Notes under the pieces: model-generated
What the model was told of the DNA's origin: nothing
The model's database searches: none
What the model saw: only the letters and a program-made list of their open reading frames with translations
Shown here: positions 17,589-61,488 of the stretch, in pieces
How positions within the stretch are numbered: position 1 is the first letter of the stretch
Layout of the letters: every line of letters starts with the position of its first letter
Translations under genes and position numbers: made by a program
Assembly: GCA_002416285.1 (NCBI GenBank)
Contig: DICM01000020.1
Location: 26,597-90,596, forward strand
From: Bacillales bacterium UBA5026
GTDB lineage: Bacteria > Bacillota_I > Bacilli_A > RF39 > UBA660
Direction of reading: 5' to 3'
DNA length: 64,000 nucleotides

Positions 17589-17616
17589 ATCTTCACCTAT
17601 CTTACTATTACATTTT

Positions 17617-17645
17617 ATTTTACAGTAGTTACCATTTATAGTCAA
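17617..17645 (-). promoter_or_regulatory. sigma-A type promoter of upstream TSR-pilin gene
   Basis: Minus strand reads TTGACT (17640-17645)-17 nt-TAAAAT (17617-17622). It sits directly after the polA terminator. Confidence 0.7.
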
Positions 17646-21441: not shown

Positions 21442-22149
21442 CTATCCCCATGGAATATCCAGCGGATTTGTTCTTGTTGTATTCTCATACTCATTGATAA
21501 TTTTCCCACTATTCATAACAACAACATGGTCACCAATTTCAGCTATACCAGGATTGTGTGTAATAATCAGCATAGTTGTTCCAAACTTTTCATTTGCTTC
21601 AACAAGTGATTCTAAAACAACTTTACCGGTTTTCTCATCTAGCGCCCCAGTTGGTTCATCACCAAACATTACTTTGGGATTTTTCGCTAAAGCGCGAGCG
21701 ATACTAACACGTTGTTGCTCTCCACCAGAGAGTTGATACATACTCTTCCTTCGATGTTTCGTTAACCCAACAGTATCGATAATTGCATCGACAGCAGCTT
21801 TATCTCCACCCAATGAAGAACCAACTAAAACATTCTCATAAACATTTAAATGTTCCAATAAATTGTATGTTTGAAAAATAAACCCTAAATTTTTCTTTCG
21901 GAAATGAGTCATTTTTCGATCACTATATTTGCGAATATCTTTACCTTCATAGTAAATATGTCCTGCACTAGCATGATCAAGCCCTGAAATTACATTTAAC
22001 AAAGTAGTTTTACCACTACCTGATGGTCCTAAGATAACGATAATCTCACCCTTTTTTATTTTAAGGGATACGCCGTTTAAAGCATATTGCTCAATTCCAC
22101 CTTGCTTATAAACTTTTGTAACATCTTTTAACTCTATTAAGTTTTCCAT
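21442..22149 (-). CDS. ABC transporter ATP-binding protein (MacB/LolD-like)
   Basis: Walker A GPSGSGKTT, signature LSGGEQQRVSIARAL, Walker B VMFGDEPTGALD. Confidence 0.9.
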   Translation of the reverse strand: MENLIELKDVTKVYKQGGIEQYALNGVSLKIKKGEIIVILGPSGSGKTTLLNVISGLDHASAGHIYYEGKDIRKYSDRKMTHFRKKNLGFIFQTYNLLEHLNVYENVLVGSSLGGDKAAVDAIIDTVGLTKHRRKSMYQLSGGEQQRVSIARALAKNPKVMFGDEPTGALDEKTGKVVLESLVEANEKFGTTMLIITHNPGIAEIGDHVVVMNSGKIINEYENTTRTNPLDIPWG

Positions 22150-22156
22150 GATACAC

Positions 22157-24691: not shown

Positions 24692-25389
24692 CTCAAATCC
24701 ATCGCATCTTTTACAACATCATTTATAGCAACTTCTTTAATATGACCACTATTCATACGAATCACCGTATTGGCCATATCAGCTATACTTGGATTATGCG
24801 TTACAATAATCATTGTTGTATTATACTTTTTATTAATTTTCTGGAGTAATTCTAAAATTTTCTTCCCAGTTTCCTCATCAAGAGCACCAGTTGGTTCATC
24901 ACAAAACAGGACTTTTGGATTCTTGACAAGAGCTCTTGCAATAGCAACTCGCTGCATTTGTCCACCTGATAATTGATAAGGATATTTATGAATATGTTCT
25001 GTTAAACCAACTGCTTCAACAATCTCTTCCAGATTTAGAAGATTGGTTCCTAGTTGTGCACCTAGTTCGATATTTTCTTTTACAGTCAGATTAGGAATTA
25101 GGTGATAACTTTGAAAAATAAAACCGAGATTATCTTTTCGATACTCAGTAAGCTCCTTATCATTTTTGGTATCAATCCGCTCATCTGTAAAAAATATTTT
25201 TCCTTTTGATGGCTGATCAATTCCCGAAAGAAGATTCAAAAATGTGGACTTTCCACTTCCGGAAGGTCCTAAAATTACAATCATTTCTCCCCTATTTAAA
25301 GTTAAGTCTATATTTTCTAGTGCGTGAGTAGTTTCACTATAGCTTTTATATAGTTTAGATACTTTTTCAAGTTTATATATAGGATCCAT
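24682..25389 (-). CDS. ABC transporter ATP-binding protein (second, paralogous)
   Basis: Walker A GPSGSGKST, signature LSGGQMQRVAIARAL, Walker B VLFCDEPTGALD. GAAGGAGGGA RBS. Confidence 0.9.
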   Translation of the reverse strand: MDPIYKLEKVSKLYKSYSETTHALENIDLTLNRGEMIVILGPSGSGKSTFLNLLSGIDQPSKGKIFFTDERIDTKNDKELTEYRKDNLGFIFQSYHLIPNLTVKENIELGAQLGTNLLNLEEIVEAVGLTEHIHKYPYQLSGGQMQRVAIARALVKNPKVLFCDEPTGALDEETGKKILELLQKINKKYNTTMIIVTHNPSIADMANTVIRMNSGHIKEVAINDVVKDAMDLRWA

Positions 25390-30110: not shown

Positions 30111-30566
30111 TTATTCACCGATTGTTGAAAAATTTTCTACAACTTTAGCAGTTTTACCATCATATTCAACTTTATAACCGTTGATTGTTAATTGAGCTAA
30201 CTTAATTTCACCACCGTCAACAACTACTTTTCCACCATCGACTGGATTTTTACCTTTGAAATCAACTGTAATTGTAATGGCTTTATCATCAGTAGTTTTT
30301 TCTGTATCTGCAGTAAGTGTTTTTCCTTCTAATGATGTTGTATAAGTATCATCTACAATTTTAGCTTCACTAGCATTAGTAAGCATATTTTTTAAAGTTG
30401 ATTTTTCAACAGAATCAATATACCCGTATGCACTACTTTCAGCAGCACCTTTCTTAGCACTATCAATAACTCCTAAAATCATTGGTGTAGCAATTAACGC
30501 AATGATTGCAAGAATAACGATAACAGCTAGTAATTCAATTAATGTAAAACCTTTTGTATTTTTCAT
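30111..30566 (-). CDS. type IV pilin-like protein (short, major-pilin-like), copy 1
   Basis: MKNTKG|FTLIELLAVIVILAIIALIATPMILGVIDSAKKGAAESSAYGY. This is a prepilin cleavage/methylation motif with Glu at +5. GGAGG RBS at 30576-30580. Confidence 0.9.
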   Translation of the reverse strand: MKNTKGFTLIELLAVIVILAIIALIATPMILGVIDSAKKGAAESSAYGYIDSVEKSTLKNMLTNASEAKIVDDTYTTSLEGKTLTADTEKTTDDKAITITVDFKGKNPVDGGKVVVDGGEIKLAQLTINGYKVEYDGKTAKVVENFSTIGE

Positions 30567-30597
30567 GTATAACTTCCTCCTATTTTTCTACAGTATT

Positions 30598-30626
30598 AAT
30601 ATACCATAGGTTCTTCGCCCAGTCAA
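30598..30626 (-). promoter_or_regulatory. sigma-A type promoter of pilin gene 1
   Basis: Minus strand reads TTGACT (30621-30626)-17 nt-TATATT (30598-30603). The TTCGACAAAAT motif lies just upstream (30631-30641). Confidence 0.7.
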
Positions 30627-30776
30627 TATAATTTTGTCGAATTTTAGAATATACTACATTAAAATTGAATTAAATTTCATATTTTTTTTAGAAGGAAATA
30701 AGCTGTTAGCTCGTAGATAATATTTTTAATTCTTAACAGGTAAAATATCTATCAAAAAAAAAGACCTTTCGATCTT

Positions 30777-31232
30777 TTATCCTTCAATTGCAGAAAAGTT
30801 TTCTACAACTTTAGCAGTTTTACCATCATATTCAACTTTGTAACCGTTGATTGTTAATTGTGCTAATTTAATTTCTCCACCATCAACAACTACTTTTCCA
30901 CCATTCTCTGGATTTTTACCTTTGAAATCAACTTTGATTTTAACTGGTGCAGCTGGTGTACCAACCGCTTTTGTACCTGTTAGTGTTTTTCCAGCATCAC
31001 TGATTGTGTAAGTATCATCTACGATTTTAGCTTCTGAAGCATTAGCTAGCATATTTTTTAAAGTTGATTTTTCTACTGCATCAACATACCCATATGCACT
31101 ACTTTCAGAAGCACCTTTCTTAGCACTATCGATTACTCCTAAAATCATTGGTGTTGCAATTAACGCAATGATTGCAAGAATAACGATAACAGCAAGTAAT
31201 TCAATTAATGTAAAACCTTTTGTATTTTTCAT
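30777..31232 (-). CDS. type IV pilin-like protein, copy 2
   Basis: Same length (151 aa) as copy 1. It is near-identical over residues 1-75 and from about 101 to 151, but differs over residues about 76-100. Confidence 0.9.
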   Translation of the reverse strand: MKNTKGFTLIELLAVIVILAIIALIATPMILGVIDSAKKGASESSAYGYVDAVEKSTLKNMLANASEAKIVDDTYTISDAGKTLTGTKAVGTPAAPVKIKVDFKGKNPENGGKVVVDGGEIKLAQLTINGYKVEYDGKTAKVVENFSAIEG

Positions 31233-31262
31233 GTATAACTTCCTCCTATCTTATACAATAAT

Positions 31263-31291
31263 AATATATCACAGCTAAATTACACAGTCAA
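31263..31291 (-). promoter_or_regulatory. sigma-A type promoter of pilin gene 2
   Basis: Minus strand reads TTGACT (31286-31291)-17 nt-TATATT (31263-31268), the same hexamers as copy 1. Confidence 0.7.
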
Positions 31292-31296
31292 TATGA

Positions 31297-31336
31297 TTTT
31301 GTCGAAATAATGTAAATTTTGTCGAAATAATGTAAA
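31297..31336. repeat. perfect 20-bp tandem duplication (ttttgtcgaaataatgtaaa x2)
   Basis: 31297-31316 is identical to 31317-31336. It sits immediately upstream of the -35 of pilin gene 2. Each unit contains the TTCGACAAAA motif (minus strand) also found upstream of pilin gene 1. Confidence 0.9.
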
Positions 31337-31364
31337 TTATGGAATATTTAATTTTTTATTAAAA

Positions 31365-31400
31365 TAAAAGAAAAATAGAAGTTATTTCTTCATAACTTCT
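31365..31400 (-). terminator. intrinsic terminator after pilin gene 3
   Basis: 9-bp stem AGAAGTTAT/ATAACTTCT (31377-31385/31392-31400) overlaps the TAG stop. TTTTTCTTTTATTTT follows on the minus strand. Confidence 0.8.
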
Positions 31401-31839
31401 ATCTTGCGGCTGTTGCTTTTTTACCATCATATGTAACAACATAACCATTAATCGTCAATGTAGCTGCAGTAATCTCTCCACCAGCAATTGTAACGGAGTC
31501 ATCTACACCTTTTGGACTATCTCCTTTGAATGATACATTGATTGTTACTGGGGTAGTTCCATCTGCTTCCATCTTTGTGTTAGCAGTAAGAACTTTACCA
31601 TCACTACTAATTGAATAAGTATCATCAACTAATGTATTACCATTATTATCAATCATATCTTTTAAACTTGATTTTTCAACTGAATCGACATACCCGTAGG
31701 CACTACTTTCAGCAGCACCTCTTTTAGCACTATCAATAACTCCTAAAATCATTGGTGTTGCAATTAAGGCAATGATCGCTAAAATAACGATTACAGCTAG
31801 TAATTCAATTAAGGTAAAACCTTTTCTATTTGCTTTCAT
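31399..31839 (-). CDS. type IV pilin-like protein, copy 3 (more divergent)
   Basis: MKANRKG|FTLIELLAVIVILAIIALIATPMILGVIDSAKRGAAESSAYGY. The globular part is about 50% similar to copies 1 and 2. AGGAGGTAG RBS. Confidence 0.9.
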   Translation of the reverse strand: MKANRKGFTLIELLAVIVILAIIALIATPMILGVIDSAKRGAAESSAYGYVDSVEKSSLKDMIDNNGNTLVDDTYSISSDGKVLTANTKMEADGTTPVTINVSFKGDSPKGVDDSVTIAGGEITAATLTINGYVVTYDGKKATAAR

Positions 31840-47434: not shown

Positions 47435-48415
47435 TTAATTACTTTCTTTTTTAGATAATTCAAACGATTTTACCTTGTCATTTATTTGTTCATTAATAAA
47501 ACTATATACTGTATCCCAATATAAAACTGGATTTTTATAATAAGATTCGGCATGCTCAGCATTTTTTACAATTAATTTTTTCTTATATACTAAAGTAGAA
47601 TCATATAATTTCTCAATCATATAAGATGGAACAAAAGTATCTTGATCTCCCTGAATAAATAAAATTGGTGTTTGATTCTTATTTAATTGCTTGATAACAT
47701 TTACGTCTTTCAGAGAATATCCTGTCTTTAATTTCACAAAAACATCAAAAATATTTAATATTGGAAAAGGTGGTAATTTATATAACTTCTTTACTTGATA
47801 AGAAAATTCTTCATATGCGGAAGTATAACCACAATCAGCAATAATACACCTTACATTCTTAGGTAATTCTTCTCCAGATGCCATCATTGTTGAGGCTGCC
47901 CCCATTGAGATTCCATATAAGACAATATTTGAATTATCAATATGATCATTTAAATATTTAATCCAATTTAAAATATCAATTCTATCATACCAACCCAGTC
48001 CAATATAATCTCCCGAACTTTTTCCATGTCCTCTTGCTTCAATTGCTAACACGTTAAAATCATTTTCTATAAAATTTTTGATAACATGACTAAGTTGTTC
48101 TACATTGCCAAAATATCCATGTGATACAATAACCCAGTTTGAACTCTTGCTATCGCATTCCATTCTATATGCATGTAATTTTAAGTAGTCAAAGGATTCT
48201 ATATATACCTCCGTTTTGGGGTATTTCTTAAACCACTGAATCTCTTCATCATGATTTCTGGAAATAGAATCTGAAGATTGATTTTTATTAGCATCTAATA
48301 CAAATGATTTGTCAGTTCTAGAATTAATAGCTATATTATATAATTTATTCAATATGATATAACTAAATATCATAAATAAGAACATTACAATTATAATTCC
48401 TATTACTAAATCCAT
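47435..48415 (-). CDS. membrane-anchored alpha/beta hydrolase
   Basis: N-terminal TM. HGYFGN oxyanion region, nucleophile elbow GISMGA, and later D...H (QGDQDTFV, AEHAES). Confidence 0.75.
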   Translation of the reverse strand: MDLVIGIIIVMFLFMIFSYIILNKLYNIAINSRTDKSFVLDANKNQSSDSISRNHDEEIQWFKKYPKTEVYIESFDYLKLHAYRMECDSKSSNWVIVSHGYFGNVEQLSHVIKNFIENDFNVLAIEARGHGKSSGDYIGLGWYDRIDILNWIKYLNDHIDNSNIVLYGISMGAASTMMASGEELPKNVRCIIADCGYTSAYEEFSYQVKKLYKLPPFPILNIFDVFVKLKTGYSLKDVNVIKQLNKNQTPILFIQGDQDTFVPSYMIEKLYDSTLVYKKKLIVKNAEHAESYYKNPVLYWDTVYSFINEQINDKVKSFELSKKESN

Positions 48416-48616: not shown

Positions 48617-50655
48617 TTATATATATCTTGTAACAATTTCTAATATCTTATTTACTTCTTGCATCAATACATTATAGTTTTGCTTGATATATTCATTATC
48701 ATTTTCTTTACTTGCAATCTCATGATTGAATGCAGTTTCTGCTAAAGTTTTAAATCCTAAATATTTAGAATCACTCTTTAAGGCGTGTACCTCAATTGCA
48801 TAGTTTGCCATATCACCAGTTTTCTTAAATGAAGTTAATTTGGCAATTCTCATATCGATTGCATCTAAGAAATCTTTCAAGGTATCATTATACATATTGA
48901 TATCTCCTAAAATCTGAATTCCTTGCGCAACATCAATTCCGTTTTCTTTTAAGTAATCAATATTCCCCTTCGTAACTACAGTAACTGGGGTTACAAATTC
49001 TGTTGTAGGCTCTTTTGCAGTATTGCTAGCCTCTTCTTTGTTCACTGTTTGATTGGTATCTACATTTTTATCTAAGAATAGATGAATAATGCGATCAAGT
49101 TCAAACTTATCGATTGGTTTAGAAATATATTCATCAAACCCCTCCCCTAAGTATTTTTCTCTTGATCCAGCAATCGCATTTGCTGTCAAAGCAATAATTG
49201 GTGTTTTAATTCCCATATCTTTTAATTTATGCATTGTTTCCGTACCTGTTGTTACTGGCATCATATCATCCATAAATATTAGGTCATAATTAGATCCAGA
49301 TTCTATTTTTTCAATACTTGACTCACCACTTAAAACTTCTTCAATCGTAAAGTTATATGGTTGTAAAAACTTAGAAGCAATTTTAATATTAATCCTATTA
49401 TCATCGACGATTAAGACTCTTTTTCTTGCATAATTTGAAAAACAAATTGTATTCTCTTTTGATATTGTTGGTTTTAAATATTTTGTCAAAACTTTGATCA
49501 ATTCTTCTTTTTCAATCGGCTTTGCCAAGTAATCCTCAAAACCTTCCTTCATGTAATGTTCTCTCATACCCGTGATAGCATTAGCGGTTAAAGCAATAAC
49601 CGGAATACTAAAACCGTCAATCTCCTTTAAATGTTTTAATGCTTCAACACCTTTCATAACAGGCATCATATCATCCATCAAAATGAGATCATAATGTTCA
49701 TGTTTCTTGATTCGTTCAATTGCTTCAACACCACTGTCTACTAAAACAGTATTTAGTTCATAACGTTTTAAAATCTTATCAGCAACTTTTAAATTTAATT
49801 TATTATCATCAACTATTAAAACTCTTGAATTAGAAAATTTTAAATTTTCTTCCTCTTCATTTATGACTCTTAATTCTTCTCCACCATGCAATTGAAGAAT
49901 TTTCTGTTTCAGATAAATGGTAAATTTAGACCCTTCACCATATACACTTTGTACAACTATCTTTCCACCCATCATTTCAGCAAGTGACTTGGTAATGGCA
50001 AGACCAAGGCCAGTTCCTTCTAACGTTGTATTTTTATCCTCATCTAATCGGTTAAACTTCGTAAATAAGCTATCAATTTTTTCTGGCTTAATTCCTCGAC
50101 CGGTATCTTCAATCGAGATAACAAGAGAACATTCATCATTCTCATTAATACAGTTTACAGTAAAAATAATTTTCCCTTTTTCAGTATATTTGACGGCATT
50201 GGTTAATATATTCGTTATAATTTGTTTAATTTTTCCCAGATCTCCATACATAACAGCTGGAATATCAGGAGCAAAAGAGGTAATAAATTCAATTGGTTTT
50301 TCTGCGAGTCTCGGTCCAATTAGTTTTGAAAGATTCTCTAAATTAGGGCGTAATTCATATTTCATATTAACGATTTCCATTTTATTTGCTTCAATCTTTG
50401 AAATATCTAGAATACCATTGACAATTTCCAACAAATTTTGCGAAGCCATGATAATATCGGCTGCATCCTTTTGGATTGCTTCCATCGAAGTTTCTGTTTT
50501 AATGCATTCCGAGAATCCCACAATTGCATTTAATGGAGTACGAATCTCGTGGGACATACTAGATAGGAACTCTGATTTTGCACGATTTGCCTTCTCTGCA
50601 TGTTCTTTTGCAAGCTCTAATTCTGAAAGCATTTTCATGTCCGGATTTTCTATGG
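48617..50655 (-). repeat. about 2.0-kb high-identity segment shared with 53511..55565
   Basis: The cytoplasmic parts of the two kinases (from [18 protein letters not shown] to the C-terminus) are nearly identical in protein and very similar in DNA. The membrane sensor parts (50656-51286 versus 55566-56210) are divergent. Confidence 0.85.
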
Positions 50656-51286
50656 TATGATACATCAGTACAACAATAAAACTTATTAGTGGTGACATTA
50701 ATAAATATTCCGGATTAGTCATTTGTAGATAAATAATCGGAGCTACCATAGTAATAAATGTAACGATTGGAATATTCTTTTTCTTTTTCATTTTTTTTAC
50801 ATCTCTAATGAGATAGGATATCCAAATTAGAATTACAATTCCAGCAACTAAATACAAAAAATTTGTATTAGCACCGTATGCATATATAATATTATCCTGT
50901 TTGTAATAATAAACAGGTAAAATGTAGTTTACTACGGTAGCAATAATATACATTATAGAGAAACACATTAGTTTCCGTTTGCCAATTAATGATAATTTTG
51001 AAGAATTCTCTGAAATAAACATATACGTTGACAATAGATATATAATAGTCAATAAATACGTATAGTAAAGCTTTAGCACAAACCATCTAACAATACTTGA
51101 ATCATCAATATACAAACTTGCATAAACTCCTATCAAATCCATTACTACACCAAATATAGCAAAAAGGAGAATATATTTATAGATTGTGGTTTCAAATGAA
51201 ACAATTTTCTTTTTTGAAAAATATAAAATAGCAATTAGTATAAGATAACACAAACTTGCAACCATTAATAATACATTTGCATTCAT
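48617..51286 (-). CDS. hybrid sensor histidine kinase: polytopic N-terminal sensor, HisKA, HATPase_c, two receiver domains, C-terminal Hpt
   Basis: About 6-7 TM helices. H-box [13 protein letters not shown] boxes ([20 protein letters not shown]). Two REC domains (LIVDDN...LILMDDMMP; LIVDDN...LIFMDDMMP). Hpt ([16 protein letters not shown]). Confidence 0.9.
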
Positions 51287-51342
51287 AACATCCCTACCTT
51301 ACTAATAAGTATAACATGTATATTTATAATTGTGTAGCATAA

Positions 51343-51376
51343 ATAAAAAAAATAAGAATCATTAATGATTCTTATT
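51343..51376 (-). terminator. strong intrinsic terminator after HAD/acyltransferase gene 1
   Basis: 12-bp palindrome arms AATAAGAATCAT/ATGATTCTTATT (51351-51376), followed by TTTTTTTT on the minus strand. Confidence 0.9.
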
Positions 51377-51402
51377 AGCAAACTAGAATATGATAGAGTT
51401 TT

Positions 51403-52935
51403 TTATAAAGATCTTATATTTTGTGATAAAACCTTTACTTTATTAACACTTTCAGCATCATCTTTCTTTGTATTAATCTTTACTAATTCTTCTATTATAG
51501 TATTAATTCCGTTAATCGCATTATTAACAGAAGTAGTCCAACGTTGAGCAATTTCACTTGCTTTTAATCCTTCTGTATAAATAGGTTTTAAAAAGGCAAT
51601 GATAACTCTATTTGGAATATCAACTTCTTTTGGTACCCATACCATAGCGATTGGACGAACAACACCTTTTCCATCTTCAGCAATTTTAAAAGCTTGATTT
51701 GATTTCAAAGGTAATATATTTCCATTTTCATCTGGTTTTCGATTAATGGTTCCTTCTGGGTAAATAGCAGTTGCAGATCCTGCTGCCAAATAATCATTTA
51801 TATATTTAAAAGTTTGAAGATTAGTTATCATATAATCAGTGTCTTCTGGTCGTGCAATAGGAAGTGCTCCTGCTGATTTTACTAAGAAAGTAGTAGCATA
51901 AGTTCCAAGATTATTTCCTACTGTACCAAATATATTCTCATTATTTTCAAACATTCTTTTTAATGCAGCAAAATGTGTTGGATGTTTTAGCAGAGCCATA
52001 GTTATTAGTGGATCCTTTATATTTCTATGATTACTTACAAACACATCCGGTCCTTTTTCTTTTGGAATATTTTCTTCACCAATAATCAAAGGATTTAAAT
52101 CATATACTTTTGAATATATTTTCGCACTAACCCGAATTAATTTATAGAAATTTTCTGTATAAAATTTTTGATACATTTTTAAACTTTTAATTTTACGTTT
52201 GTTTTTTTCTTTTTGGGTTAATTCTCTTTTTGGTTTCTTTACAAGCTTATTCTTCTCAGCATTATTAACAACTGCCATTACAGATTCGTGTGTAAAAGGA
52301 ACTCTAACTACTCTTTCATTTTCAAATTCTTCTAAAACATTATGCAGTGTCTCTACACAAACAGGGATTGTATCAATATCACTTAAATCGTTTATTACCT
52401 CTATAGTATCTTCAAAAACAAAAGACGGTTTTAAATCTGCAATTATTTGTTTTTTATCCTCTACCTTTTCTACTAAAACCAGTTGTTTGTATTTAATATC
52501 ATTTAGTTTTAATTGTAGCTTTGTAAGTAAAGGAACAGCTACTTTTCTCAGAAAAACATCTTTTATTGTCTCTTCCTCTTTAGTTTTAATACCACGTAAA
52601 GAGACAAATGTTATTTTATATCCTCTACTAGTTAAATCATTTATAATGTTTGTCGCATCAGGACGTAAAGGTTGAAAATTATATTTGAGAAACATTTTAG
52701 CATTATATGAAGCAATTGCTTTTTTACATTTTAAAGTTAATTCTTCTTCACTAAGAGTACTATCCTTTGACTTAAAAAATTCATATAGTCCAAAAATTTC
52801 TGCGACATTTTTACCATTTGGATTTACAACTTTCGCATCCATTCCATATTTCTTTTTTAAATATGCTGGGGCTTCTTTTAAAATAAACCCAGTTTCATCA
52901 ATAATTGTATCATCAATATCAAAAACAATATTCAT
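51403..52935 (-). CDS. fusion protein: N-terminal HAD-like hydrolase + C-terminal PlsC/LPLAT-type acyltransferase
   Basis: HAD motif I FDIDDTIID. Acyltransferase H(x)4D box VSNHRNIKD and IYPEGTINR box. GAGGGGGA RBS. Confidence 0.8.
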   Translation of the reverse strand: MNIVFDIDDTIIDETGFILKEAPAYLKKKYGMDAKVVNPNGKNVAEIFGLYEFFKSKDSTLSEEELTLKCKKAIASYNAKMFLKYNFQPLRPDATNIINDLTSRGYKITFVSLRGIKTKEEETIKDVFLRKVAVPLLTKLQLKLNDIKYKQLVLVEKVEDKKQIIADLKPSFVFEDTIEVINDLSDIDTIPVCVETLHNVLEEFENERVVRVPFTHESVMAVVNNAEKNKLVKKPKRELTQKEKNKRKIKSLKMYQKFYTENFYKLIRVSAKIYSKVYDLNPLIIGEENIPKEKGPDVFVSNHRNIKDPLITMALLKHPTHFAALKRMFENNENIFGTVGNNLGTYATTFLVKSAGALPIARPEDTDYMITNLQTFKYINDYLAAGSATAIYPEGTINRKPDENGNILPLKSNQAFKIAEDGKGVVRPIAMVWVPKEVDIPNRVIIAFLKPIYTEGLKASEIAQRWTTSVNNAINGINTIIEELVKINTKKDDAESVNKVKVLSQNIRSL

Positions 52936-52961
52936 AATCTTCCCCCTCTTTTATGGCTTGT

Positions 52962-52989
52962 ATTATACACATAAATTTTATTTTGTCAA
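52962..52989 (-). promoter_or_regulatory. sigma-A type promoter (conserved block A, copy 1)
   Basis: Minus strand reads TTGACA (52984-52989)-16 nt-TATAAT (52962-52967). An identical arrangement is at 59769-59796. Confidence 0.75.
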
Positions 52990-53188
52990 ATTTTACCATT
53001 ATTTTTCTAAAAAGTCTTAAAAATAATTGATTTATATAAAAAAGTAAAGAACTTCATAAACTCTTTCGATGGGTTTGGTGAACACTTTTAACAAGTATTT
53101 GTTATAAGAAGAAGCTAAAATTTATAATAGTCTTATCTATTGTAATTATAACACAAACTTTCTTTAAAAGACTAGTTTAAAGAAAAAA

Positions 53189-53389
53189 TTAAAGAAAAAA
53201 AGAGTTTTTATACTCTTTTGGTAAATATTGTGTAAAATAATTTAATGAATAAGTATTCTCTCTTATATTTAAAGCAAATGTCAATTCATGGTACTCATAA
53301 AGAATTTCTGTAACAACACTTTCTATATGATTAAAATGTATAATATTTACCAAAATTATAAATAAAGTAATAAATAATATATCAACCAT
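53189..53389 (-). CDS. doubtful small membrane ORF (66 aa from ATG 53389)
   Basis: AAGGGGAG RBS and one TM (MVDILFITLFIILVNII). However, its last 17 or so codons read through a sequence block, including a terminator hairpin, that is non-coding in the paralogous copy at 59975-60016. Confidence 0.3.
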   Translation of the reverse strand: MVDILFITLFIILVNIIHFNHIESVVTEILYEYHELTFALNIRENTYSLNYFTQYLPKEYKNSFFL

Positions 53390-53510
53390 AATTCTCCCCT
53401 TAGAAATTTGTTTCTGATAATATATCAAAATTCCTAGTTTGGCAAGAAAAGGTGATAAAAATTGGTATTTATTTTAATAAAAAAAGGACATAAAAGTCCT
53501 CTTTATACAA

Positions 53511-56210
53511 CTAAATATATCTTGTAACAATTTCTAATACGTTATTTACTTCTTGCATCAATACATGATAATTTTGTTTGATATATTCAATGTCATTTTC
53601 TTTACTTGCAATTTCATGATTAAACGCTGTTTCTGCTAAAGTTTTAAAGCCTAAATATTTAGCATCACTCTTTAATGCATGTACCTCGATTGCATAGTTG
53701 GCCATATCACCAGTTTTTCTAAATGATGTTAACTTAGCAATTCTCATATCAATCGCTGCTAAAAATTCTTTTAAAGTATCATTGTACATATTAATATCAC
53801 CCAGAATTTGTATACCTTGTCTGATATCAATTCCATTTTCTTTTAAATAATCTACATTCCCCTTCGTAACTACAGTAATTGGAGTTACAAATCCTGTTGT
53901 AGATTCTTTTACAGTTTTGCTTGGCTCTTCTTTTGTTACTGTTTGATTGGTATCTACATTTTTATCCAAGAATAAATGAATAATACGATCAAGTTCAAAC
54001 TTGTCGATTGGTTTAGAAATGTATTCATCAAAACCTTCTCCTAAGTATTTTTCTCTTGATCCAGCAATGGCATTTGCTGTTAAAGCAATAATTGGTGTTT
54101 TTATTCCTATATCTTTTAACTTATGCATTGTTTCTGTACCAGTTGTTACAGGCATCATATCATCCATGAATATTAGGTCATAATTAGATCCAGATTCTAT
54201 TTTTTCAATACTCGCCTCCCCACTTAAAACTTCTTCGATGATAAAGTTATATGGTTGTAAAAAATTAGAAGCAATCTTGATATTAATTTTGTTATCATCT
54301 ACCACTAAAACCTTATGACCAGAGTAATCGGAAAAATTAATCTCGACATTTTTTGCATCCTCTGCACTAGAAGTTGGTTTTAAATATTTCTTTAGCACTT
54401 TAATTAATTCTTCTTTTTCAATTGGTTTTGCTAAATAATCCTCAAAGCCTGCTTTCATATAATGTTCTCTCATACCTGTAATAGCATTAGCCGTTAGTGC
54501 AATAACGGGAATATTAAAGCCATTAATTTCTTTTAACCGTTGTAATGCTTCAACACCTTTCATGATAGGCATCATATCATCCATCAAAATCAAATCATAG
54601 CGTTCATTTCTTTTAATTCGCTCAATTGCTTCAATTCCACTGTCTACTAGAACAGTATTCAATTCATAACGTTTTAAAATCTTATCAGCTACTTTTAAGT
54701 TAAGTTTATTATCATCTACTATTAAGACTCTTGAACTTGAAAATTTTAAATTTTCTTCCTCATCAGTTATGGTTCTTAATTCTTCTCCACCATGTAATTG
54801 AAGAATCTTTTGTTTTAGATAAACGGTAAATTTAGAGCCTTGTCCATAGACACTTTGGACAACAATCTTACCACCCATCATTTCTGCTAAAGATTTTGTA
54901 ATAGCCAATCCTAATCCAGTACCCTCTAACGTTGTATTTCGATCCTCATCTAAACGATTAAACTTTGTAAAAAGACTATCAATTTTTTCAGGTTTGATAC
55001 CACGTCCTGTATCTTCAATCGAGATAACAAGAGAGCACTCATCATTTTCATTGATACAATTTACAGAAAAAATAATTTTTCCCTTTTCGGTATATTTTAC
55101 TGCATTAGTTAATATATTGGTGATGATTTGTTTAATTTTACCCAAATCCCCATACATAACTGCCGGAATATCAGGAGCAAAAGACGTAATAAACTCAATT
55201 GGTTTCTCTGCAAGTCTAGGTCCAATTAATTTTGAAAGATTTTCTAAATTAGGAAGTAACTCATATTTCATGTTAACAATTTCCATTTTGTTTGCTTCAA
55301 TCTTTGAAATATCTAGAATACCATTAACAATTTCCAGCAAATTTTGCGAAGCCATTATAATATCTTCCGCATCTTTGCGTACAGCCTGCATAGAGGCTTC
55401 CGTTTTAATACATTCTGAAAATCCTACAATAGCATTTAATGGGGTACGTATTTCATGAGACATACTAGATAGGAACTCTGATTTAGCACGATTGGCTTTT
55501 TCTGCATGTTCTTTTGCTAATTCTAATTCTGAAAGCATTTTCATATCTGGATTTTCAATTGTAAAATACATTAAAAAAGTGATAAAGGTTTCCATAGATG
55601 TCATTAATAAAATTCCGGGATTAATCTTTTGAATCGCAATAACTATTATTCCTATAATCATGTAAGCAAAAATAGGAACACATTTTATTCTTTTAATATT
55701 TTGAAAATTTCTTACCATAACAATAATCCAAGAAAGAATACATAAACCACTAACCAAATACAATACGTTCGAGCTAGGACCATAGGAATATACTATATTA
55801 TTTTCATGAAAATAATATAGCGGAAGCACCATAATTAAAATCAAAACAATCAAATATAATATCACAAAAATAATATGCTTAGATAAATATTTCAATACTG
55901 ATTCATTCACATCATAATTTTCTTTTTTCTTTGATATTATAAAAATATAAATTGTAATAGTAAATATCCATGTCAATAAATATAACAAATATAATTTAGT
56001 AACAATAAAATTTAATATTGGATATTGTTCCATATGAATAATAGTAAAAATACTGGATATATCTAAAATCAAGCCAAATGCATTTGTAATCATCAAAATT
56101 CTATAAATTTTATTTTCTAACAAATTTAATCTTTTTTTAAAGAAAAAAACACAGATAAGTAAAACAATATAAAACAAACTACAAATTTGAAAATATACAC
56201 TACTAAACAT
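53511..56210 (-). CDS. hybrid sensor histidine kinase, paralog of 48617..51286 with a different membrane sensor domain
   Basis: Same HisKA-HATPase-REC-REC-Hpt layout and near-identical cytoplasmic sequence. The N-terminal 220 aa or so (6-7 TM) show only weak similarity to the paralog. Confidence 0.9.
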
Positions 56211-56324
56211 ACCAACATCTCCATTCTTTACTATTAATAGTATAACATAAAAAAAAGAACTATCAAACGATAATTCTTATAATATTGATGATTTTATAAG
56301 TTAACGAGTATTGTGCACTATATA

Positions 56325-57863
56325 TTAATGCATATTTCTATTCTGTTTAACTAAACTTAAGATTTTTGTTCTTAATTGTAATTCCGCTTCTTCAAAAGAC
56401 AATTTACTAGTATCAATCGGTTCATCATATCTAACAGTTAAATCCTTACTATTTTTCTCATAACTACCGGTTACTGCAAATGGAACAATTAAGGAATTCT
56501 TTTTTTTTGACATTGATACTGCTCCATGTTTAAATGGCAATAACAGTGAATCATAATATTCTTCTTCTGTAAGAGTACCATTAATTAATAATTTTATTAA
56601 ACAATCTCCCTTAGAATTTAATAATAATTCAAGAAATGTATATTCATCTACTCTGTTGCTTTTTAATAATTGTTGTAAAACTTGAACTTGTGATAATAAT
56701 AAAGATTGACTTGTAATGTTTTCAATAAACTGTTCTTTTAAAATATTAAAATGAAGTTCACTTGTTATAAATTTGTGCAATTGTTCTATATACTCTCTCT
56801 TCAAATGATTTCTAGTTCCTTCTGCAAATAGCCCTACTGCACTCCCAACATCTAAATAATTTTCTGCTACTAATTTTGACTGACTTGGATCTCCAAATCT
56901 ATCCACACTGATTGCTCCAGTATGTCTAAAAAAGGATCCAAGTTTACCATCAAAGTATTCTTTTTTAGCCATCCAATGCGTTGTTCTTTTTGTTGAACAA
57001 ATAACAGGAAATTGATCTAATACGTGTAAATGATTTCCACATAAAATGACTGGTCCATCCTTCGGTATAAATTCTCTATCAATAATCGTTGGATTATAAT
57101 AATTTTGAAAACATGGACTTCCAATTGCCCTTACAATACCATATTGAATTTTAAATTGATCTCTTTTGAACGGAATGTAATCCACATTCTTTACTTCTTT
57201 ATTTAAATTGTCCTCATTAGAAGAATTATCTTGTGATAAAGATGTCTCCTGTCTTAATAGTTCAATTTTACTAGTAAAATCAGACATCTCTTGACCATTA
57301 TTCGCCATATAAATATTGCTATTATATTTTACATCTTCATTTGTTGGATTCTTTTTACCAATCACTGGGCAGAAACTACTAATTTCTTCAATATTTTCTT
57401 TTTTATCTTCTATCATTATATCAATGTTAAGACTTTTACAAACTTCTAATTTTTCAGATGCATTATTAGACTCTGAAACATACTTAATCTCATGATATTT
57501 AACACCATATTCTTTCAGACTATTTTCTAATAGTTTTCTAAATATATATCCCAACAAACTTTTTTCAGTTGTATGTGCATGCCCTGTTATAATATATATT
57601 TTCTTGCCTTCATCATATTGTTGATTTATATATTCAATAACATCTTCGTCTAAAGGTAACTTCTCATATTTTAAAATATTTTTAAGCCAAAATTTGCCTT
57701 GTTGCTTCTTTGTACAAGCGAACATATCTTTTATTTCAAATCCCTTTTCGTTTACAACTGCATCCTCTCCAAAATATTGTTTTCCCTGCTTTAATTGAAA
57801 TCCATAGATATCTTTTAAAACACCATCAAAATCTACTCCAACATTCTTAATACTTTTATTCAT
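56325..57863 (-). CDS. fusion protein: N-terminal HAD-like hydrolase + C-terminal PlsC/LPLAT-type acyltransferase (distant paralog of 51403..52935)
   Basis: HAD motif I VDFDGVLKD. H(x)4D box CGNHLHVLD and FAEGTRNH box. Confidence 0.75.
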   Translation of the reverse strand: MNKSIKNVGVDFDGVLKDIYGFQLKQGKQYFGEDAVVNEKGFEIKDMFACTKKQQGKFWLKNILKYEKLPLDEDVIEYINQQYDEGKKIYIITGHAHTTEKSLLGYIFRKLLENSLKEYGVKYHEIKYVSESNNASEKLEVCKSLNIDIMIEDKKENIEEISSFCPVIGKKNPTNEDVKYNSNIYMANNGQEMSDFTSKIELLRQETSLSQDNSSNEDNLNKEVKNVDYIPFKRDQFKIQYGIVRAIGSPCFQNYYNPTIIDREFIPKDGPVILCGNHLHVLDQFPVICSTKRTTHWMAKKEYFDGKLGSFFRHTGAISVDRFGDPSQSKLVAENYLDVGSAVGLFAEGTRNHLKREYIEQLHKFITSELHFNILKEQFIENITSQSLLLSQVQVLQQLLKSNRVDEYTFLELLLNSKGDCLIKLLINGTLTEEEYYDSLLLPFKHGAVSMSKKKNSLIVPFAVTGSYEKNSKDLTVRYDEPIDTSKLSFEEAELQLRTKILSLVKQNRNMH

Positions 57864-57891
57864 AATATCATTTCCCCCTCTTTTATAGTAT

Positions 57892-59751
57892 TTATGCTAA
57901 AAATTTCATTTTAACTTTAGATTGCGATTTTTCATCGGTAACATCTTGTGAAAGTTTCTCTCTATTATTAATGCGGCCTAACTCTTCTTTAAGCCTATTA
58001 TGGCTAACTTTACCTAGTAAAGATTGTGGTAACTCTTTTAAAATTTCAAAATCATAAGGAATTGCATACTTATTTAATTTCTTTTCACATAAGCGTTTTA
58101 GTTCTTGTTTAATTTCATCGTTAGCAACAAATCCCTCTTTTAAAACTATATAGGCTTTAGGAATCTCCATTTTATATGGATGGGAAACTCCAATTACTGC
58201 ACAAATAGAGACTGCAGGATGACTTTCAATAATTTTTTCAATTTCAATCGGATAAACATTTATACCACTAACTACAATCATGTCCCCTTTTCTAGAAGAA
58301 AAGTAAAATTGACCATCTTTATAATATCCTAAATCACCTGTATGTAACCAATTTTCTCTAATTGTGCGATCAGTCTCTTCTGGTTTGTTATAGTATCCTT
58401 TCATTACAGTCTCTCCAGAAACACAAATTTCCCCAACTTCGCCTTCTGTTAGTTCCTCTTTTGTATCAATTGAAACTATTTTAATGTTAGTATTCACCAT
58501 TGGAATGCCAATAGAAGATTGTGCATTATAATCCTTTGAAGCAAACGTTACTCCAGCTACCGCTTCAGCAAGACCATACCCTTTACATAATTTAGCTTTA
58601 GAGTTATGCGTTGCAAAAAAAGAATTAACTTTCTCTTCAAACTGGTCTTTAAGCATATCTCCACCAGAAACAGCATATTTTAAACAAGACATATCGATAT
58701 TTTTCATTTTCTTATTATTAATTATTCCTTGAAATAATGTAGGAACTCCTAACAAATGATTTGGTTTAACTTTTTTAAATAATTTATGAAAATTTTTTAT
58801 ATCAACCTTTGGAATTAAAACAGAGGTAACACCAAGTGACAAAGGTAAATGTATAGAACTACACAATCCAAAACCATGAAATACTGGCATGATTGTAAGC
58901 ATTTTATCTCCCACTGAAAAATTGTCTTCTGATTGTTTAAATTGATCTACCATACTATTAAAATTATGATTTGTTATCATAGCACCTTTGGGTGTTCCTG
59001 TCGTACCACCGGTTCTTAAAATAACTGCTACTTTATCTTTTTTATTTGTTCCTTTATCATCTTCAACAAATGAAACATCTTTTCCTTGTTGAACAAAGTT
59101 ATTCCAAGTTTTTGATTTATCATTTAAAGAAACTTTACTCTTTTCTAAAAATAAGGTATAAGCCATTTTTTTAAGCAGTGGCATTGAATCTTTTGGAGAA
59201 ATAACAACAATTTCTTTAATGTTAGCCTCATTTTGAATATTTTTAAATTTATTATATGATGAATCAATAGTAAAAATATATTGAGAATTAGTTTCAATAA
59301 CAAATGATTTAATTTCATCTTCTGCAGAAAATGGATGAATCATATGTGCGACTGCACCAATTTTATTTAAAGCATAAAAAGCAATAACAGCCTCTGGAGT
59401 GTTGCCCATACAAATAGTTACAATGCTTTCAGATTTAATACCATTCTTAATCATACTTTTAGCACAATCATCTATTTTTTCTATTAATTGTTGAAACGTG
59501 ATTTTCTTACCGAAATATTCAAGAGCAGTAATATCAGGATAATTATCAACATCTTTTTTTATATACTCATAAATGGTCATTTCAGGAGTCTCTGCCATAA
59601 TCTGTTTTTCAGAATAGTATTTTAACCATGGCATATCAACACTCAATTTACCAACCATTGGTCCATATATTTCACCTTTGGCAATTTTTGATAAATAGAC
59701 TTTTCTTAATTTCCATTCATTAATAGTAAGATTCCTAATCATATAGTTCAT
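57892..59751 (-). CDS. AMP-dependent acyl-CoA/acyl-ACP ligase (FadD/Aas-like)
   Basis: AMP-binding signature LRTGGTTGTPKGAM. GYGLAEA. TGDLGYY..G...SSRKGDMIVVSGINVYP. It ends 28 nt upstream of the acyltransferase gene. Confidence 0.9.
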   Translation of the reverse strand: MNYMIRNLTINEWKLRKVYLSKIAKGEIYGPMVGKLSVDMPWLKYYSEKQIMAETPEMTIYEYIKKDVDNYPDITALEYFGKKITFQQLIEKIDDCAKSMIKNGIKSESIVTICMGNTPEAVIAFYALNKIGAVAHMIHPFSAEDEIKSFVIETNSQYIFTIDSSYNKFKNIQNEANIKEIVVISPKDSMPLLKKMAYTLFLEKSKVSLNDKSKTWNNFVQQGKDVSFVEDDKGTNKKDKVAVILRTGGTTGTPKGAMITNHNFNSMVDQFKQSEDNFSVGDKMLTIMPVFHGFGLCSSIHLPLSLGVTSVLIPKVDIKNFHKLFKKVKPNHLLGVPTLFQGIINNKKMKNIDMSCLKYAVSGGDMLKDQFEEKVNSFFATHNSKAKLCKGYGLAEAVAGVTFASKDYNAQSSIGIPMVNTNIKIVSIDTKEELTEGEVGEICVSGETVMKGYYNKPEETDRTIRENWLHTGDLGYYKDGQFYFSSRKGDMIVVSGINVYPIEIEKIIESHPAVSICAVIGVSHPYKMEIPKAYIVLKEGFVANDEIKQELKRLCEKKLNKYAIPYDFEILKELPQSLLGKVSHNRLKEELGRINNREKLSQDVTDEKSQSKVKMKFLA

Positions 59752-59768
59752 CCCCTTTTATGGCCTGT

Positions 59769-59796
59769 ATTATACACATAATTTTTATTTTGTCAA
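59769..59796 (-). promoter_or_regulatory. sigma-A type promoter (conserved block A, copy 2)
   Basis: Minus strand reads TTGACA (59791-59796)-16 nt-TATAAT (59769-59774). Confidence 0.75.
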
Positions 59797-60019
59797 ATTT
59801 TACCATTCCATATAAAATTCATATGGTAAATATAATTAATACATAAATTCATTTAATGGATAATTTTAATAATTATTTATAAAAAGATGTCGGAATATAC
59901 AATAGTCTTATCTATTGTAATTATAACACAAACTTTCTTTAAAAGACCGATTTAAAGAAGAAATTAAAGAAAAAAAGAGTTTTTTATACTCTTTTGGCAA
60001 ACATTGTGTAAAATAACAA

Positions 60020-60583
60020 CTATTTTACTAATCTTTTTTGTCCTGAAAAATCTACTAATTTATCTTCATTACCAACTAAAGTTTCCTTTTCATTTGATAT
60101 ATCCAAAGCATTTTTAGATACTAAATCAATTTTTTGAATCAATTGATAATTTTGATAGAAACTTGCAACTCCATTAAAATCTATAAAAACTACCATTATC
60201 ATATTTTCAGTTTGTTCTCGAAATAGCAAATCCTTTTTGCTTATCCGATCATCCCTATATATATCATAGAGATTTTCAAAGCCCCTTGTAGCTTTTAAGG
60301 ATTTACCATCATATCTCGTTACATACCAATCATTGTCGGTAACCGTTTCATATATTATTGTTTGAGTTTCTTTTCTATATACCGCATAATAATAATCGCT
60401 AAAAGTAGTATCCTTTTTTTTAATATCTTCTGTTTTTGTATCACTAGTAGATGAACTGCATCCAGTAAGAACACTAGTAGTTAAAATTGGAGTTATCAAT
60501 AAATAAGTTGCTAATTTCAATTGTTGTAAAAAAGTATATTTTTTTAATGTTTTATTTTGTTCAGAATTATCCATATTTTTCAT
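60020..60583 (-). CDS. putative lipoprotein, unknown family
   Basis: Lipobox-like LLITPILTTSVLTG|CSSS. The C-terminal half (VVFIDFNGVASFYQNYQLIQKIDLVSK) is paralogous to 60760..61314. Confidence 0.7.
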   Translation of the reverse strand: MKNMDNSEQNKTLKKYTFLQQLKLATYLLITPILTTSVLTGCSSSTSDTKTEDIKKKDTTFSDYYYAVYRKETQTIIYETVTDNDWYVTRYDGKSLKATRGFENLYDIYRDDRISKKDLLFREQTENMIMVVFIDFNGVASFYQNYQLIQKIDLVSKNALDISNEKETLVGNEDKLVDFSGQKRLVK

Positions 60584-60759: not shown

Positions 60760-61314
60760 TTACTTAATTAGTTTTTTCTGTTTTGAATATTCATGTGCCT
60801 TTTCAGGATTTGCTACTAATGTTTCAGATTCTTCAGTAATATCAATCACTTTTTTTGATACCAGATCTATTTTTTCTACTAACTGATAATTTTCATAAAA
60901 ACTCGCAACACCATTATTATCAATGAAAACTATGATACCATCTCTATTAGCTGTTTGTTCTTGAATCAGCAAATCTACTTTACTAATATCAATAGCACTA
61001 TATATTTCACTGACTTCTGTAATGCCATTACATAATCCTATATGTTTTAAATCTCTAGTATAATCCACAGATTGACCTTTATATTCAAAAGTATCATATA
61101 TTGTGGTCTTATCTTTTCCTCTAAACACATAATACTCTCTCGATTTATTGACAAAATTATTGTTTGCATTCAATTTAGCTTCATGATGCATTATAGCAAT
61201 GAACAATGGCAAAGATACTATTACCATAGCAGGAACTCGAAAAATAGACTTTTGACCACTCTCTTTATTTGTTTTTATTGGAGCATTCTGATTATTCTGC
61301 TTATAATTTTTCAT
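60760..61314 (-). CDS. membrane-anchored paralog of the 60020..60583 lipoprotein
   Basis: IVFIDNNGVASFYENYQLVEKIDLVSK is shared with the neighbouring gene. It has a TM anchor (VPAMVIVSLPLFIAIM) and no lipobox Cys. I prefer ATG 61314 (MKNYKQ) behind GGTGGA over the track start of 61335. Confidence 0.65.
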   Translation of the reverse strand: MKNYKQNNQNAPIKTNKESGQKSIFRVPAMVIVSLPLFIAIMHHEAKLNANNNFVNKSREYYVFRGKDKTTIYDTFEYKGQSVDYTRDLKHIGLCNGITEVSEIYSAIDISKVDLLIQEQTANRDGIIVFIDNNGVASFYENYQLVEKIDLVSKKVIDITEESETLVANPEKAHEYSKQKKLIK

Positions 61315-61488
61315 ATATATTCCACCATTTTCCAACTTTGAATGTATGCTAACATTTTTCTACCATACTGTCAAATTATAGATAACAATAATTGTATATC
61401 GTAGTTTTTAATTTAAACTAAACTTAATTTTCTTTGACAAATCATAACAATTACTATAAACTATAATTCTATAAAAAGGAGTTATTAT

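Follow-up and report, generated by a model that had tools for sequence, protein, structure and literature searches.

Conserved acyl-enzyme/7TM sensor-kinase modules in uncultured gut Bacilli and their possible role in acyl-lipid sensing

The 64-kb window analyzed here (contig DICM01000020.1, Bacillales bacterium UBA5026) is chromosomal DNA of a low-GC Firmicute encoding PolC, PolA, ValRS, ClpC and Tex, and carries on its minus strand a tandem locus in which genes for acyl-lipid enzymes precede genes for hybrid histidine kinases with a seven-transmembrane (7TM) input domain. Comparison with related loci revealed a family-wide rule, in which an acyl-activating and/or acyl-transferring enzyme is followed by a 7TM hybrid kinase, and the locus in the window represents two richer variants of it. 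We propose, with a probability of roughly 0.4, that the sensor recognizes the amphipathic acyl compound which its neighboring enzymes make, and that signals from the paralogous receptors enter a single phosphorelay.

Read along the minus strand, the locus consists of an AMP-binding carboxylate ligase of the ANL type (57892..59751, 619 aa), a HAD/lysophospholipid acyltransferase (LPLAT) fusion termed AT2 (56325..57863, 512 aa) and the hybrid kinase HK2 (53511-56210, 899 aa), followed by a second fusion, AT1 (51403..52935, 510 aa), and the hybrid kinase HK1 (48617-51286, 889 aa). A first-pass annotation of this DNA had described the same five open reading frames (ORFs) in the same order, and all of them were recovered at the positions it gave. 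By sequence inspection, the catalytic and phospho-acceptor motifs of all five proteins are intact.

The pairing was followed through 149 related loci from metagenome-assembled genomes (MAGs) of gut Bacilli and from metagenomes, which were retrieved via short peptide patterns and analyzed in their best-scoring subsets. Species-representative genomes were scanned and contributed 60 loci, every one of them in uncultured gut Bacilli, 'Tenericutes' or Erysipelotrichaceae-type MAGs, with humans, mice, rabbits, ruminants and chickens as host animals. A kinase gene lay immediately downstream of 37 of the 48 HAD-associated LPLATs, while seven others ran into a contig end and four had no kinase; none of the 38 HAD-less LPLATs was followed by one. 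The layouts are either ligase, HAD-LPLAT and hybrid kinase (AT2-type) or HAD-LPLAT and hybrid kinase (AT1-type), and both lie in unrelated housekeeping neighborhoods of the chromosome. Many loci carry the HAD domain as a C-terminal fusion to the ligase rather than as an N-terminal one to the LPLAT, and this alternation of fusion partners indicates that the three activities form one pathway.

The reciprocal search, in which an alignment of the sensor domain was run against metagenomes, gave at least 558 confirmed matches, of which the best 80 were kept. Among the 82 sensor kinases with enough room upstream, 69 were preceded by a ligase alone, seven by a HAD-LPLAT, five by an LPLAT and one by nothing recognizable, that is, an acyl enzyme lies directly upstream of 81/82. 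Taken with the 37/48 above and the differing neighborhoods, these counts show that the pairing of acyl enzyme and kinase is real, conserved and non-random. The first-pass annotation had cast the acyltransferases as the partners of the kinases; that linkage is conserved, but the defining partner across the family is the AMP-ligase, and the HAD/LPLAT enzyme is an optional insert. The closest relative of AT1 (62% identity) belongs to a locus that is also a tandem two-module array (L009, 358-7406), whose first kinase seems degraded (a 369-aa ORF plus a 66-aa REC piece) and whose second is split (607 + 119 aa); this fragmentation could reflect decay or an assembly error.

Sensors are co-inherited with the enzymes, and transmitters are not. 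Across 37 acyltransferase-kinase modules, LPLAT identity correlated with sensor identity at a Spearman rho of 0.85 and with the identity of the kinase core at 0.17, which bears out the earlier suggestion that the sensor domains are matched to particular acyltransferases. The relation also held within types (0.53 for AT2-type modules, Mantel p <= 0.0005; 0.61 for AT1-type modules, p = 0.011), and the sensor showed no significant correlation with the core of the same protein. In the ligase-only modules (n = 48), ligase and sensor correlated at 0.47, and ligase and core at 0.18. Accordingly, the HK1 sensor is 62-68% identical to the sensors of AT1-type modules of other species (L006, L009, L064, L067 and L068) and 33% identical to that of HK2, and the HK2 sensor shares 58-62% identity with those of AT2-type modules elsewhere. 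The specificity cassette is thus the enzyme together with the receptor half of the kinase, co-inherited across species, and this mosaic structure favors a specific ligand-receptor relation over bulk membrane sensing.

Within the window, the mosaic is visible as a sharp breakpoint. HK1 and HK2 are 77% identical overall, and their DNA identity is about 50% over the first ~640 nt, which encode the sensor, and 85-93% over the remaining ~2.05 kb, in line with the near-identical cytoplasmic halves of about 2 kb that had been noticed at first pass. The breakpoint, at about 50670/55576, falls where TM7 ends on the cytoplasmic side, at the motif MY.TIENPD. The two cores are 94% identical to each other and at most 62% identical to that of any other kinase. 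Of 387 transmitter codons, 123 differ synonymously and just 24 non-synonymously, which argues that the copies are old and have been kept alike by selection rather than freshly duplicated. Recent tandem duplication alone was rejected, as each sensor and acyltransferase is far closer to its orthologues in other species than to its neighbor, and the transmitters differ at a third of their third-codon positions. Other tandem arrays combine divergent sensors with similar cores (sensor/core identities of 0.29/1.00 in L141, 0.27/0.80 in L077 and 0.38/0.76 in L038); a non-tandem pair on one contig (0.43/0.48) does not repeat the mosaic.

The two 7TM sensors occupy 55557..56210 in HK2 (minus strand, AT2-type, aa 1-218, predicted with the N-terminus outside and the C-terminus inside) and 50651..51286 in HK1 (minus strand, AT1-type, aa 1-212), and the kinases of the family all begin with such a membrane domain of 210-230 aa. 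An AlphaFold2 (AF2) model of the HK2 sensor (pLDDT 88, pTM 0.86) shows seven helices with short loops and no extracellular domain, and a beta-hairpin in the conserved outer TM4-TM5 loop. Conserved motifs of the domain are YFSKKR..EN.IY, an Asp in TM2, LPLYY....IYSYGP, IQ..NP..LL and TIENPD. The first-pass annotation had called the two sensors very different, but with 33-36% identity, the same length and the same motifs they are homologous domains of one family. It had also pointed to HisKA_7TM and 5TMR-LYT as profiles that might fit, and no Pfam model did: the two sensors of the window gave no relevant match at E<=10 in Pfam (including HisKA_7TM, 5TMR-LYT, 7TMR-DISM and MASE), and 25 members of the sensor family gave nothing consistent at E<=1. 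Foldseek found no relative of the sensor model in the PDB at E<=1e-3; eukaryotic G-protein-coupled receptor (GPCR) bundles appeared with weak, generic similarity (E >= 6e-3), which was taken as likeness of topology and not as homology.

An exhaustive search with the sensor profile returned 1,013 clusters (50% identity level) at E<=1e-30; because the profile contained part of HisKA, the counts at E<=1e-3 and 1e-10 were inflated, and only the 1e-30 count and the best 150 matches were used. The exception among these 150 is P0296, with a domain start at residue 218; in all others the domain is N-terminal or lies in a truncated fragment, and the full-length proteins measure 590-1040 aa. Residues specific to the AT1- or AT2-type sensors lie mostly in the outer half of the bundle (11 of 15, with four in the inner half).

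By their Pfam and NCBIfam matches, HK1 and HK2 classify as HisKA-class hybrid histidine kinases with phosphorelay domains. The HK1 transmitter (48617..50650, minus strand) comprises HisKA (236-300), HATPase_c (349-462), REC1 (489-600), REC2 (~623-745) and a histidine phosphotransfer (Hpt) domain (~775-889), and the HK2 transmitter (53511..55556, minus strand) has the same order. The Pfam matches of the kinases range from E 1e-15 to 1e-45, and that of the Hpt is itself weak; the Hpt domain is nevertheless considered real because it is homologous (40-48% identity, E ~1e-38) to the Hpt half of stand-alone Hpt-REC proteins from related loci that score above the Pfam Hpt threshold. The H-box His, the two DLxxMDDxMP motifs with the REC Asp residues and the Hpt His (VHALKSD) could all be located, so that the complete His-Asp-His relay ending in an Hpt, as read at first pass, stands. 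REC2 is an internal duplicate of REC1 and not a terminal receiver. Within the 64-kb window no further REC or Hpt domain is encoded, which agrees with the earlier remark that a response regulator with an output domain is absent, and short kinases in related loci are followed solely by Hpt-REC proteins. The NCBIfam models for LuxQ, BarA and TorS match only the cytoplasmic part of the kinases and score far below cut-off. In three loci (L016, 10755-12947; L018, 8850-11024; L025, 10084-12261) a second hybrid kinase of ~725-730 aa stands after the module; in that of L016, Pfam recognizes only HisKA, HATPase_c and REC behind a long unmatched N-terminal region.

The ligase carries PF00501 (E 8e-76) and PF13193 (AMP-binding_C), which places it in the ANL superfamily; the FadD-type equivalog cut-off is missed. 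Its best NCBIfam models are long-chain fatty-acid-CoA ligases (349, 342 and 329 bits, where the cut-offs are 766, 476 and 1116), and its nearest solved structures are 4-coumarate ligase (4CL), luciferase and fatty acyl-CoA synthetase (FACS). A fatty acid is a likely candidate substrate. No transmembrane segment was predicted in the ligase, AT1 or AT2.

AT1 and AT2 are 24% identical (E 5e-16), as distant as the first-pass annotation had held, and both retain the HAD DxD and the H(x)4D/EGT motifs that it had listed; across both families (23 sequences), the HAD DxD, K and D and the LPLAT NHx4D and EGTxN are invariant. The invariant residues of AT2 are D11, D13, K138, D153, H278, D283 and EGT348-350. 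Both enzymes fall in the PF01553 PlsC/LPLAT superfamily above the Pfam cut-off (E 2e-14 for AT2 and 8e-11 for AT1). In AT2, a HAD phosphatase-like domain (aa 1-205), with a weak NT5C match, precedes the PlsC-type LPLAT domain (aa 235-512). Pfam HAD models match the N-terminal domains weakly (E 1e-4 to 1e-5). The AF2 model of AT2 (pLDDT 87) has a HAD fold that resembles the capped HAD enzymes beta-phosphoglucomutase, BT2127 and AphA (Foldseek probability 1.0), which are small-molecule phosphatases. The N-terminal domain of AT1 and AT2 thus belongs to the HAD phosphatase superfamily, and it is predicted to be a phosphatase. Since Foldseek matches of the whole model came mostly from the HAD domain, the LPLAT domain was judged by sequence profile, which gave Thermotoga maritima PlsC (5KYM, E 3e-12) as its closest solved relative. 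The AT1 and AT2 families are small, with about 50 clusters each (~47 for AT1).

A role of AT1 and AT2 as the housekeeping 1-acylglycerol-3-phosphate acyltransferase PlsC was rejected, on TIGR00530 scores of 30.4 and 56.5 bits (the cut-off being 102.95) and on a survey of a related MAG, not of the window's own genome. This MAG, MGBC165561, holds besides the module (L011) two ordinary PlsC-type genes without a HAD domain, next to prs, nadD and NAD kinase (L043). The distance from the PlsC cut-off and these separate genes together indicate that the module acyltransferases are not simply the plsC of the cell. The first-pass annotation had kept two objections open, a pairing confined to this genome and a housekeeping role of the acyltransferases, and neither is borne out.

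Several observations on these enzymes stand apart from the kinase linkage. The AT2-type LPLAT has a confidently modeled helical insert of ~85 residues (~355-440) right after the EGT motif, which AT1-type enzymes and PlsC lack and which could be a lid or an interaction module. One plasmid-like contig (L008, 2575-16366), with MobA/MobL and a resolvase, carries seven PlsC-type genes (one of them an AT1-family HAD fusion) and two ligases but no kinase, which gives it the appearance of a mobile island for acyl-lipid biosynthesis. A recurrent triad of LPLAT (~190 aa), ligase and LPLAT (~200 aa), with neither HAD nor kinase, was found in L041, L044, L046-L048 and L050-L053, the hosts being other gut Bacilli and 'Clostridium sp. 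CAG' lineages.

Regulatory DNA is also duplicated. A block of ~60 nt (block B) is nearly identical between 59748..59807, where it abuts the start codon of the ligase, and 52941..53000, upstream of AT1 (both minus strand). Each copy contains a TTGACA-16-TATAAT promoter (59796-59769 and 52989-52962), matching the consensus perfectly (12/12 by motif scoring), and a ribosome-binding site; a 39-mer of the block occurs only at these two sites in the window, with a chance expectation of 0. Farther upstream lies block A of ~120 nt (59872..59990 and 53097..53215, minus strand), copy 2 being 88% identical to 53097-53209. Copy 2 comprises a terminator-like hairpin of the preceding gene and a conserved 47-nt segment (GTCTTTTAAAGAAAG...GACTATT), which is identical in both copies, has no third occurrence in the window and is a candidate operator or second promoter. 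A strong intrinsic terminator follows HK2 (53470..53505, minus strand; hairpin of -11.6 kcal/mol, z -3.4, then a U-run). The duplicated promoters and this terminator therefore define two transcription units, each composed of a shared promoter, variable enzymes plus sensor, and a shared transmitter. The promoter blocks had no exact match among the 149 related loci and are therefore specific to this genome. The small ORF of 79 aa (53189-53428) that had been listed between HK2 and AT1 is probably no gene: its 3' end, overlapped by copy 1 of block A, duplicates intergenic sequence from upstream of the ligase, and none of the 149 loci contains a homologue.

Given these predicted activities, a mechanism could be outlined as follows. 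The ligase would activate a carboxylic acid, probably a fatty acid, to acyl-AMP or acyl-CoA; the PlsC-type acyltransferase would esterify the activated acid onto a phosphorylated acceptor, and the capped HAD phosphatase would then strip the phosphate, so that the joint product would be an amphipathic, neutral acyl ester, for instance a lipid resembling a monoacylglycerol. In AT1-type units, the acyl donors would be those of the cell itself. The product would be recognized in the membrane, probably from the outer leaflet, by the 7TM domain of the co-transcribed kinase, and HK1 and HK2, which would differ in specificity but are almost alike in transmitter and have the same promoter, would converge via one His-Asp-His phosphorelay on a terminal receiver encoded elsewhere, as a many-to-one circuit of autocrine or quorum type. 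The compactness of the 7TM bundle, with its short loops, and the non-significant lean of type-specific residues to its outer half are in keeping with such recognition. We infer the chemistry, the product rather than the substrate as ligand, the convergence on one partner, and the output. Taken further, the modules might tentatively be seen as a cell-cell (quorum-type) lipid signaling system of uncultured gut Bacilli, in which a dedicated synthase would make a neutral acyl ester for detection by a 7TM receptor kinase with a GPCR-like helical bundle, and in which cassettes of enzyme plus sensor, swapped in between an unchanging promoter and an unchanging phosphorelay transmitter, would create new specificities and give several 'languages' and one output; activity of the product lipids on the host is a further possibility. 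A variant in which the HAD domain, phosphorylated on Asp, takes its phosphate from the Hpt, so that the enzyme itself would be the output of the relay, seems very improbable.

Several points weigh against a sensor that perceives the product of its own enzymes. Neither an export function nor an output-domain regulator was linked in any locus examined, and most modules are ligase-only, a lone ligase being no obvious signal synthase and one that could consume the sensed acid. The ligase stays below every NCBIfam cut-off and has 4-coumarate ligases among its nearest solved structures, the outer-half enrichment of type-specific sensor residues is not significant (p = 0.11), and the relatives are all MAG or metagenome contigs. 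The co-variation of enzyme and sensor would, moreover, also follow from shared substrate specificity or from physical docking. Shared substrate specificity belongs to a system that senses and assimilates, which is possible but somewhat unlikely: the 7TM domain would detect, within the membrane, an exogenous (host, dietary or microbial) fatty acid or amphipathic carboxylate, the ligase would trap it as acyl-AMP or acyl-CoA and may thereby end the signal, and LPLAT and HAD, where present, would route the acid into lipids. A common substrate would explain the rho of 0.47 between ligase and sensor; the lone ligase is indeed the commonest partner (69/82), lipid scavenging is plausible in the reduced genomes of gut Bacilli and 'Tenericutes', a membrane-anchored esterase/lipase is sporadically linked, and RpfB offers the precedent of a ligase that acts on free fatty acids beside a signaling locus (PMC4504480). 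Yet AT1-type modules are linked to the sensor without any acid-activating enzyme and therefore look like synthases rather than scavengers, and paralogues with the same transmitter and promoter would abolish substrate-specific induction. The conserved transmitters and duplicated promoters point to a shared partner and shared regulation, which signal integration fits better than substrate-specific induction. Firmicutes, besides, usually take up exogenous fatty acids via FakAB/PlsX/PlsY and not as acyl-CoA, which also counts against assimilation.

Docking would be central to homeostasis or flux sensing, which we regard as unlikely, and in which the soluble ligase or acyltransferase binds the membrane or REC domain of the kinase, and the kinase registers enzyme activity or the lipid composition nearby and adjusts lipid remodeling in feedback, without a diffusible signal. 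Enzymes that lack a transmembrane segment need a membrane partner, interacting proteins would be expected to co-vary, and RpfC binds RpfF via its REC domain (PMC4504480); but the REC and Hpt parts of the modules do not co-vary with the enzyme, and the type-specific residues lean to the outer half rather than to the cytoplasmic docking face (11 vs 4, not significant). No DNA-binding regulator was found in any locus, the separate proteins being Hpt-REC only, which fits control at the protein level, while several divergent paralogues per genome are ill-suited to reporting the bulk state of the membrane. Chance or merely syntenic adjacency of housekeeping plsC/fadD genes and an unrelated hybrid kinase, duplicated locally, is hardly credible: ligases and PlsC-type enzymes are common in lipid metabolism and the data are from MAGs only, but the linkage holds almost throughout from either side, whatever the neighborhood, enzyme and sensor are co-inherited across species, the HAD domain moves between fusion partners, and the related MAG holds separate ordinary PlsC genes.

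Among the neighbors of the locus, an N-terminally anchored alpha/beta-hydrolase resembling esterases and lipases (47435..48415, minus strand; Abhydrolase_1/Hydrolase_4, E ~1e-15) lies 201 nt downstream of HK1. Its homologues stand directly upstream of the ligase in L088 (3135-4058) and L090/L091 (2995-3963), and most modules are without one; an accessory role in the system, as esterase or lipase, is possible. Just upstream of the ligase are two paralogous lipoprotein-like ORFs of ~190 aa (60020-60583 and 60760-61335, minus strand; mutual E ~1e-27), the former without a Pfam family. They were rejected as module parts, as no homologue was found beside modules elsewhere. The PADLOC anti-phage defense models gave no match at E<=1e-5 to the six proteins scanned.

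Farther away in the window, two tandem paralogues of 754 and 770 aa (12856-15120 and 15333-17645, minus strand) contain thrombospondin type-1/spondin repeats (PF19028, E ~1e-11 to 1e-12), a domain unusual in bacteria, and may be host-adhesion proteins. Three consecutive ORFs of ~150 aa that start with a prepilin N-methylation motif (PF07963) lie next to PolC (30111-31839, minus strand) and look like a type IV pilin or competence pseudopilin array. ABC ATPases of 235 aa each (21442-22149 and 24682-25389) flank an 844-aa FtsX/MacB-type permease (22157-24691), and by its domain content this minus-strand group (21442-25389) is a predicted MacB-like exporter cluster.

RF39, 'Tenericutes' and Erysipelotrichaceae-type uncultured Bacilli abound in the guts of humans and animals, and their ways of sensing the environment are almost unstudied. 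Our results define for them a large sensor-kinase family whose 7TM input has no annotation (~1,000 clusters at 50% identity), a strict genetic rule tying the sensor to acyl-activating or acyl-transferring enzymes, and a cassette-like evolution that is a hallmark of ligand-receptor specificity. If the ligand is the enzyme product, the modules would add a new chemical class to Gram-positive signaling, so far dominated by peptides, and would be a source of acyl esters from bacteria with possible effects on lipid receptors of the host; if it is a scavenged fatty acid, they would explain how lipid-dependent gut bacteria monitor host and dietary lipids. The locus in the window offers two natural, orthogonal enzyme/sensor pairs on a shared transmitter, which makes these possibilities directly testable.

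Literature searches found no published description of acyl-enzyme/7TM sensor-kinase modules, in keeping with the first-pass annotation, which had not recognized the system as a described one. The closest parallel in gene logic is the rpfB-rpfF-rpfC(-rpfG) cluster of Xanthomonas and Stenotrophomonas, which, like CqsA/S, LuxM/N and agr, is a precedent for a receptor that perceives the product of its linked enzymes. Rpf clusters link a fatty-acyl-CoA ligase (RpfB, which mobilizes free fatty acids), a synthase and a polytopic HK-REC-Hpt sensor, the signal (DSF, for diffusible signal factor) is derived from a fatty acid, and RpfF variants pair with variants of the transmembrane input domain of RpfC (RpfF-1/RpfC-1 and RpfF-2/RpfC-2) (PMC4504480). 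The modules share the combination of a ligase with a hybrid HK-REC-Hpt kinase and the tie between enzyme variants and transmembrane input variants; they differ in having HAD and PlsC-type LPLAT enzymes instead of the crotonase-type RpfF, a 7TM sensor without detectable homology to known inputs instead of the five-TM input of RpfC, no linked counterpart of the REC-HD-GYP protein RpfG, Gram-positive gut Bacilli as hosts, and genes that are co-directional in one operon. Pfam detected no crotonase or HD-GYP domain in the module and no further REC in the window. With these absences and the 7TM rather than five-TM input, an identification as a DSF/rpf quorum-sensing system was rejected.

In Vibrio, the CqsA/CqsS and LuxM/LuxN pairs likewise place a synthase gene beside that of a multi-TM hybrid kinase whose membrane domain binds the autoinducer, a hydrophobic acyl derivative, and the receptors converge on LuxU, so that several receptors share one Hpt. 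Their synthase chemistry is different (pyridoxal phosphate-dependent CqsA, and LuxM), and in the modules the Hpt is fused to the kinase or occurs in a separate Hpt-REC protein. The mosaic architecture recalls staphylococcal agr, in which AgrB/AgrD and the polytopic sensor half of AgrC diverge together while the kinase half and the promoter are conserved. There the signal is a peptide, the kinase is a non-hybrid one of the HPK10 class, and the variation is allelic between strains, whereas the window has acyl enzymes, HisKA-class hybrid kinases and paralogues within one genome.

On the enzyme side, the plant bifunctional acyltransferases GPAT4/6/8 combine a HAD-like phosphatase with a PlsC-type acyltransferase and make sn-2 monoacylglycerol, which is a precedent for acylation followed by dephosphorylation to a neutral ester in enzymes with the same domain order, HAD then LPLAT. 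This likeness is one of domain order; the HAD domain in the window is beta-phosphoglucomutase-like and capped, and the enzymes are linked to a kinase. The resemblance to the lysolipid re-acylation logic of Escherichia coli Aas, an LPLAT with an ANL ligase, which had been raised at first pass, holds at the domain level, where the Aas model is the second-best NCBIfam match of the AT2 LPLAT (E 9e-12), but not at the level of the equivalog, for which NF006386 sets a cut-off of 1221 bits and gives scores of 43.5 and 16.5. Aas is a single polypeptide without a kinase partner, whereas the genes in the window are separate, include a HAD domain and encode enzymes without transmembrane segments. The kind of system, in which a polytopic hybrid kinase is linked to the enzyme for a hydrophobic signal, is thus already known; new here are the sensor family, the set of HAD, LPLAT and ligase partners, the host group, and the paralogous cassettes with homogenized transmitters.

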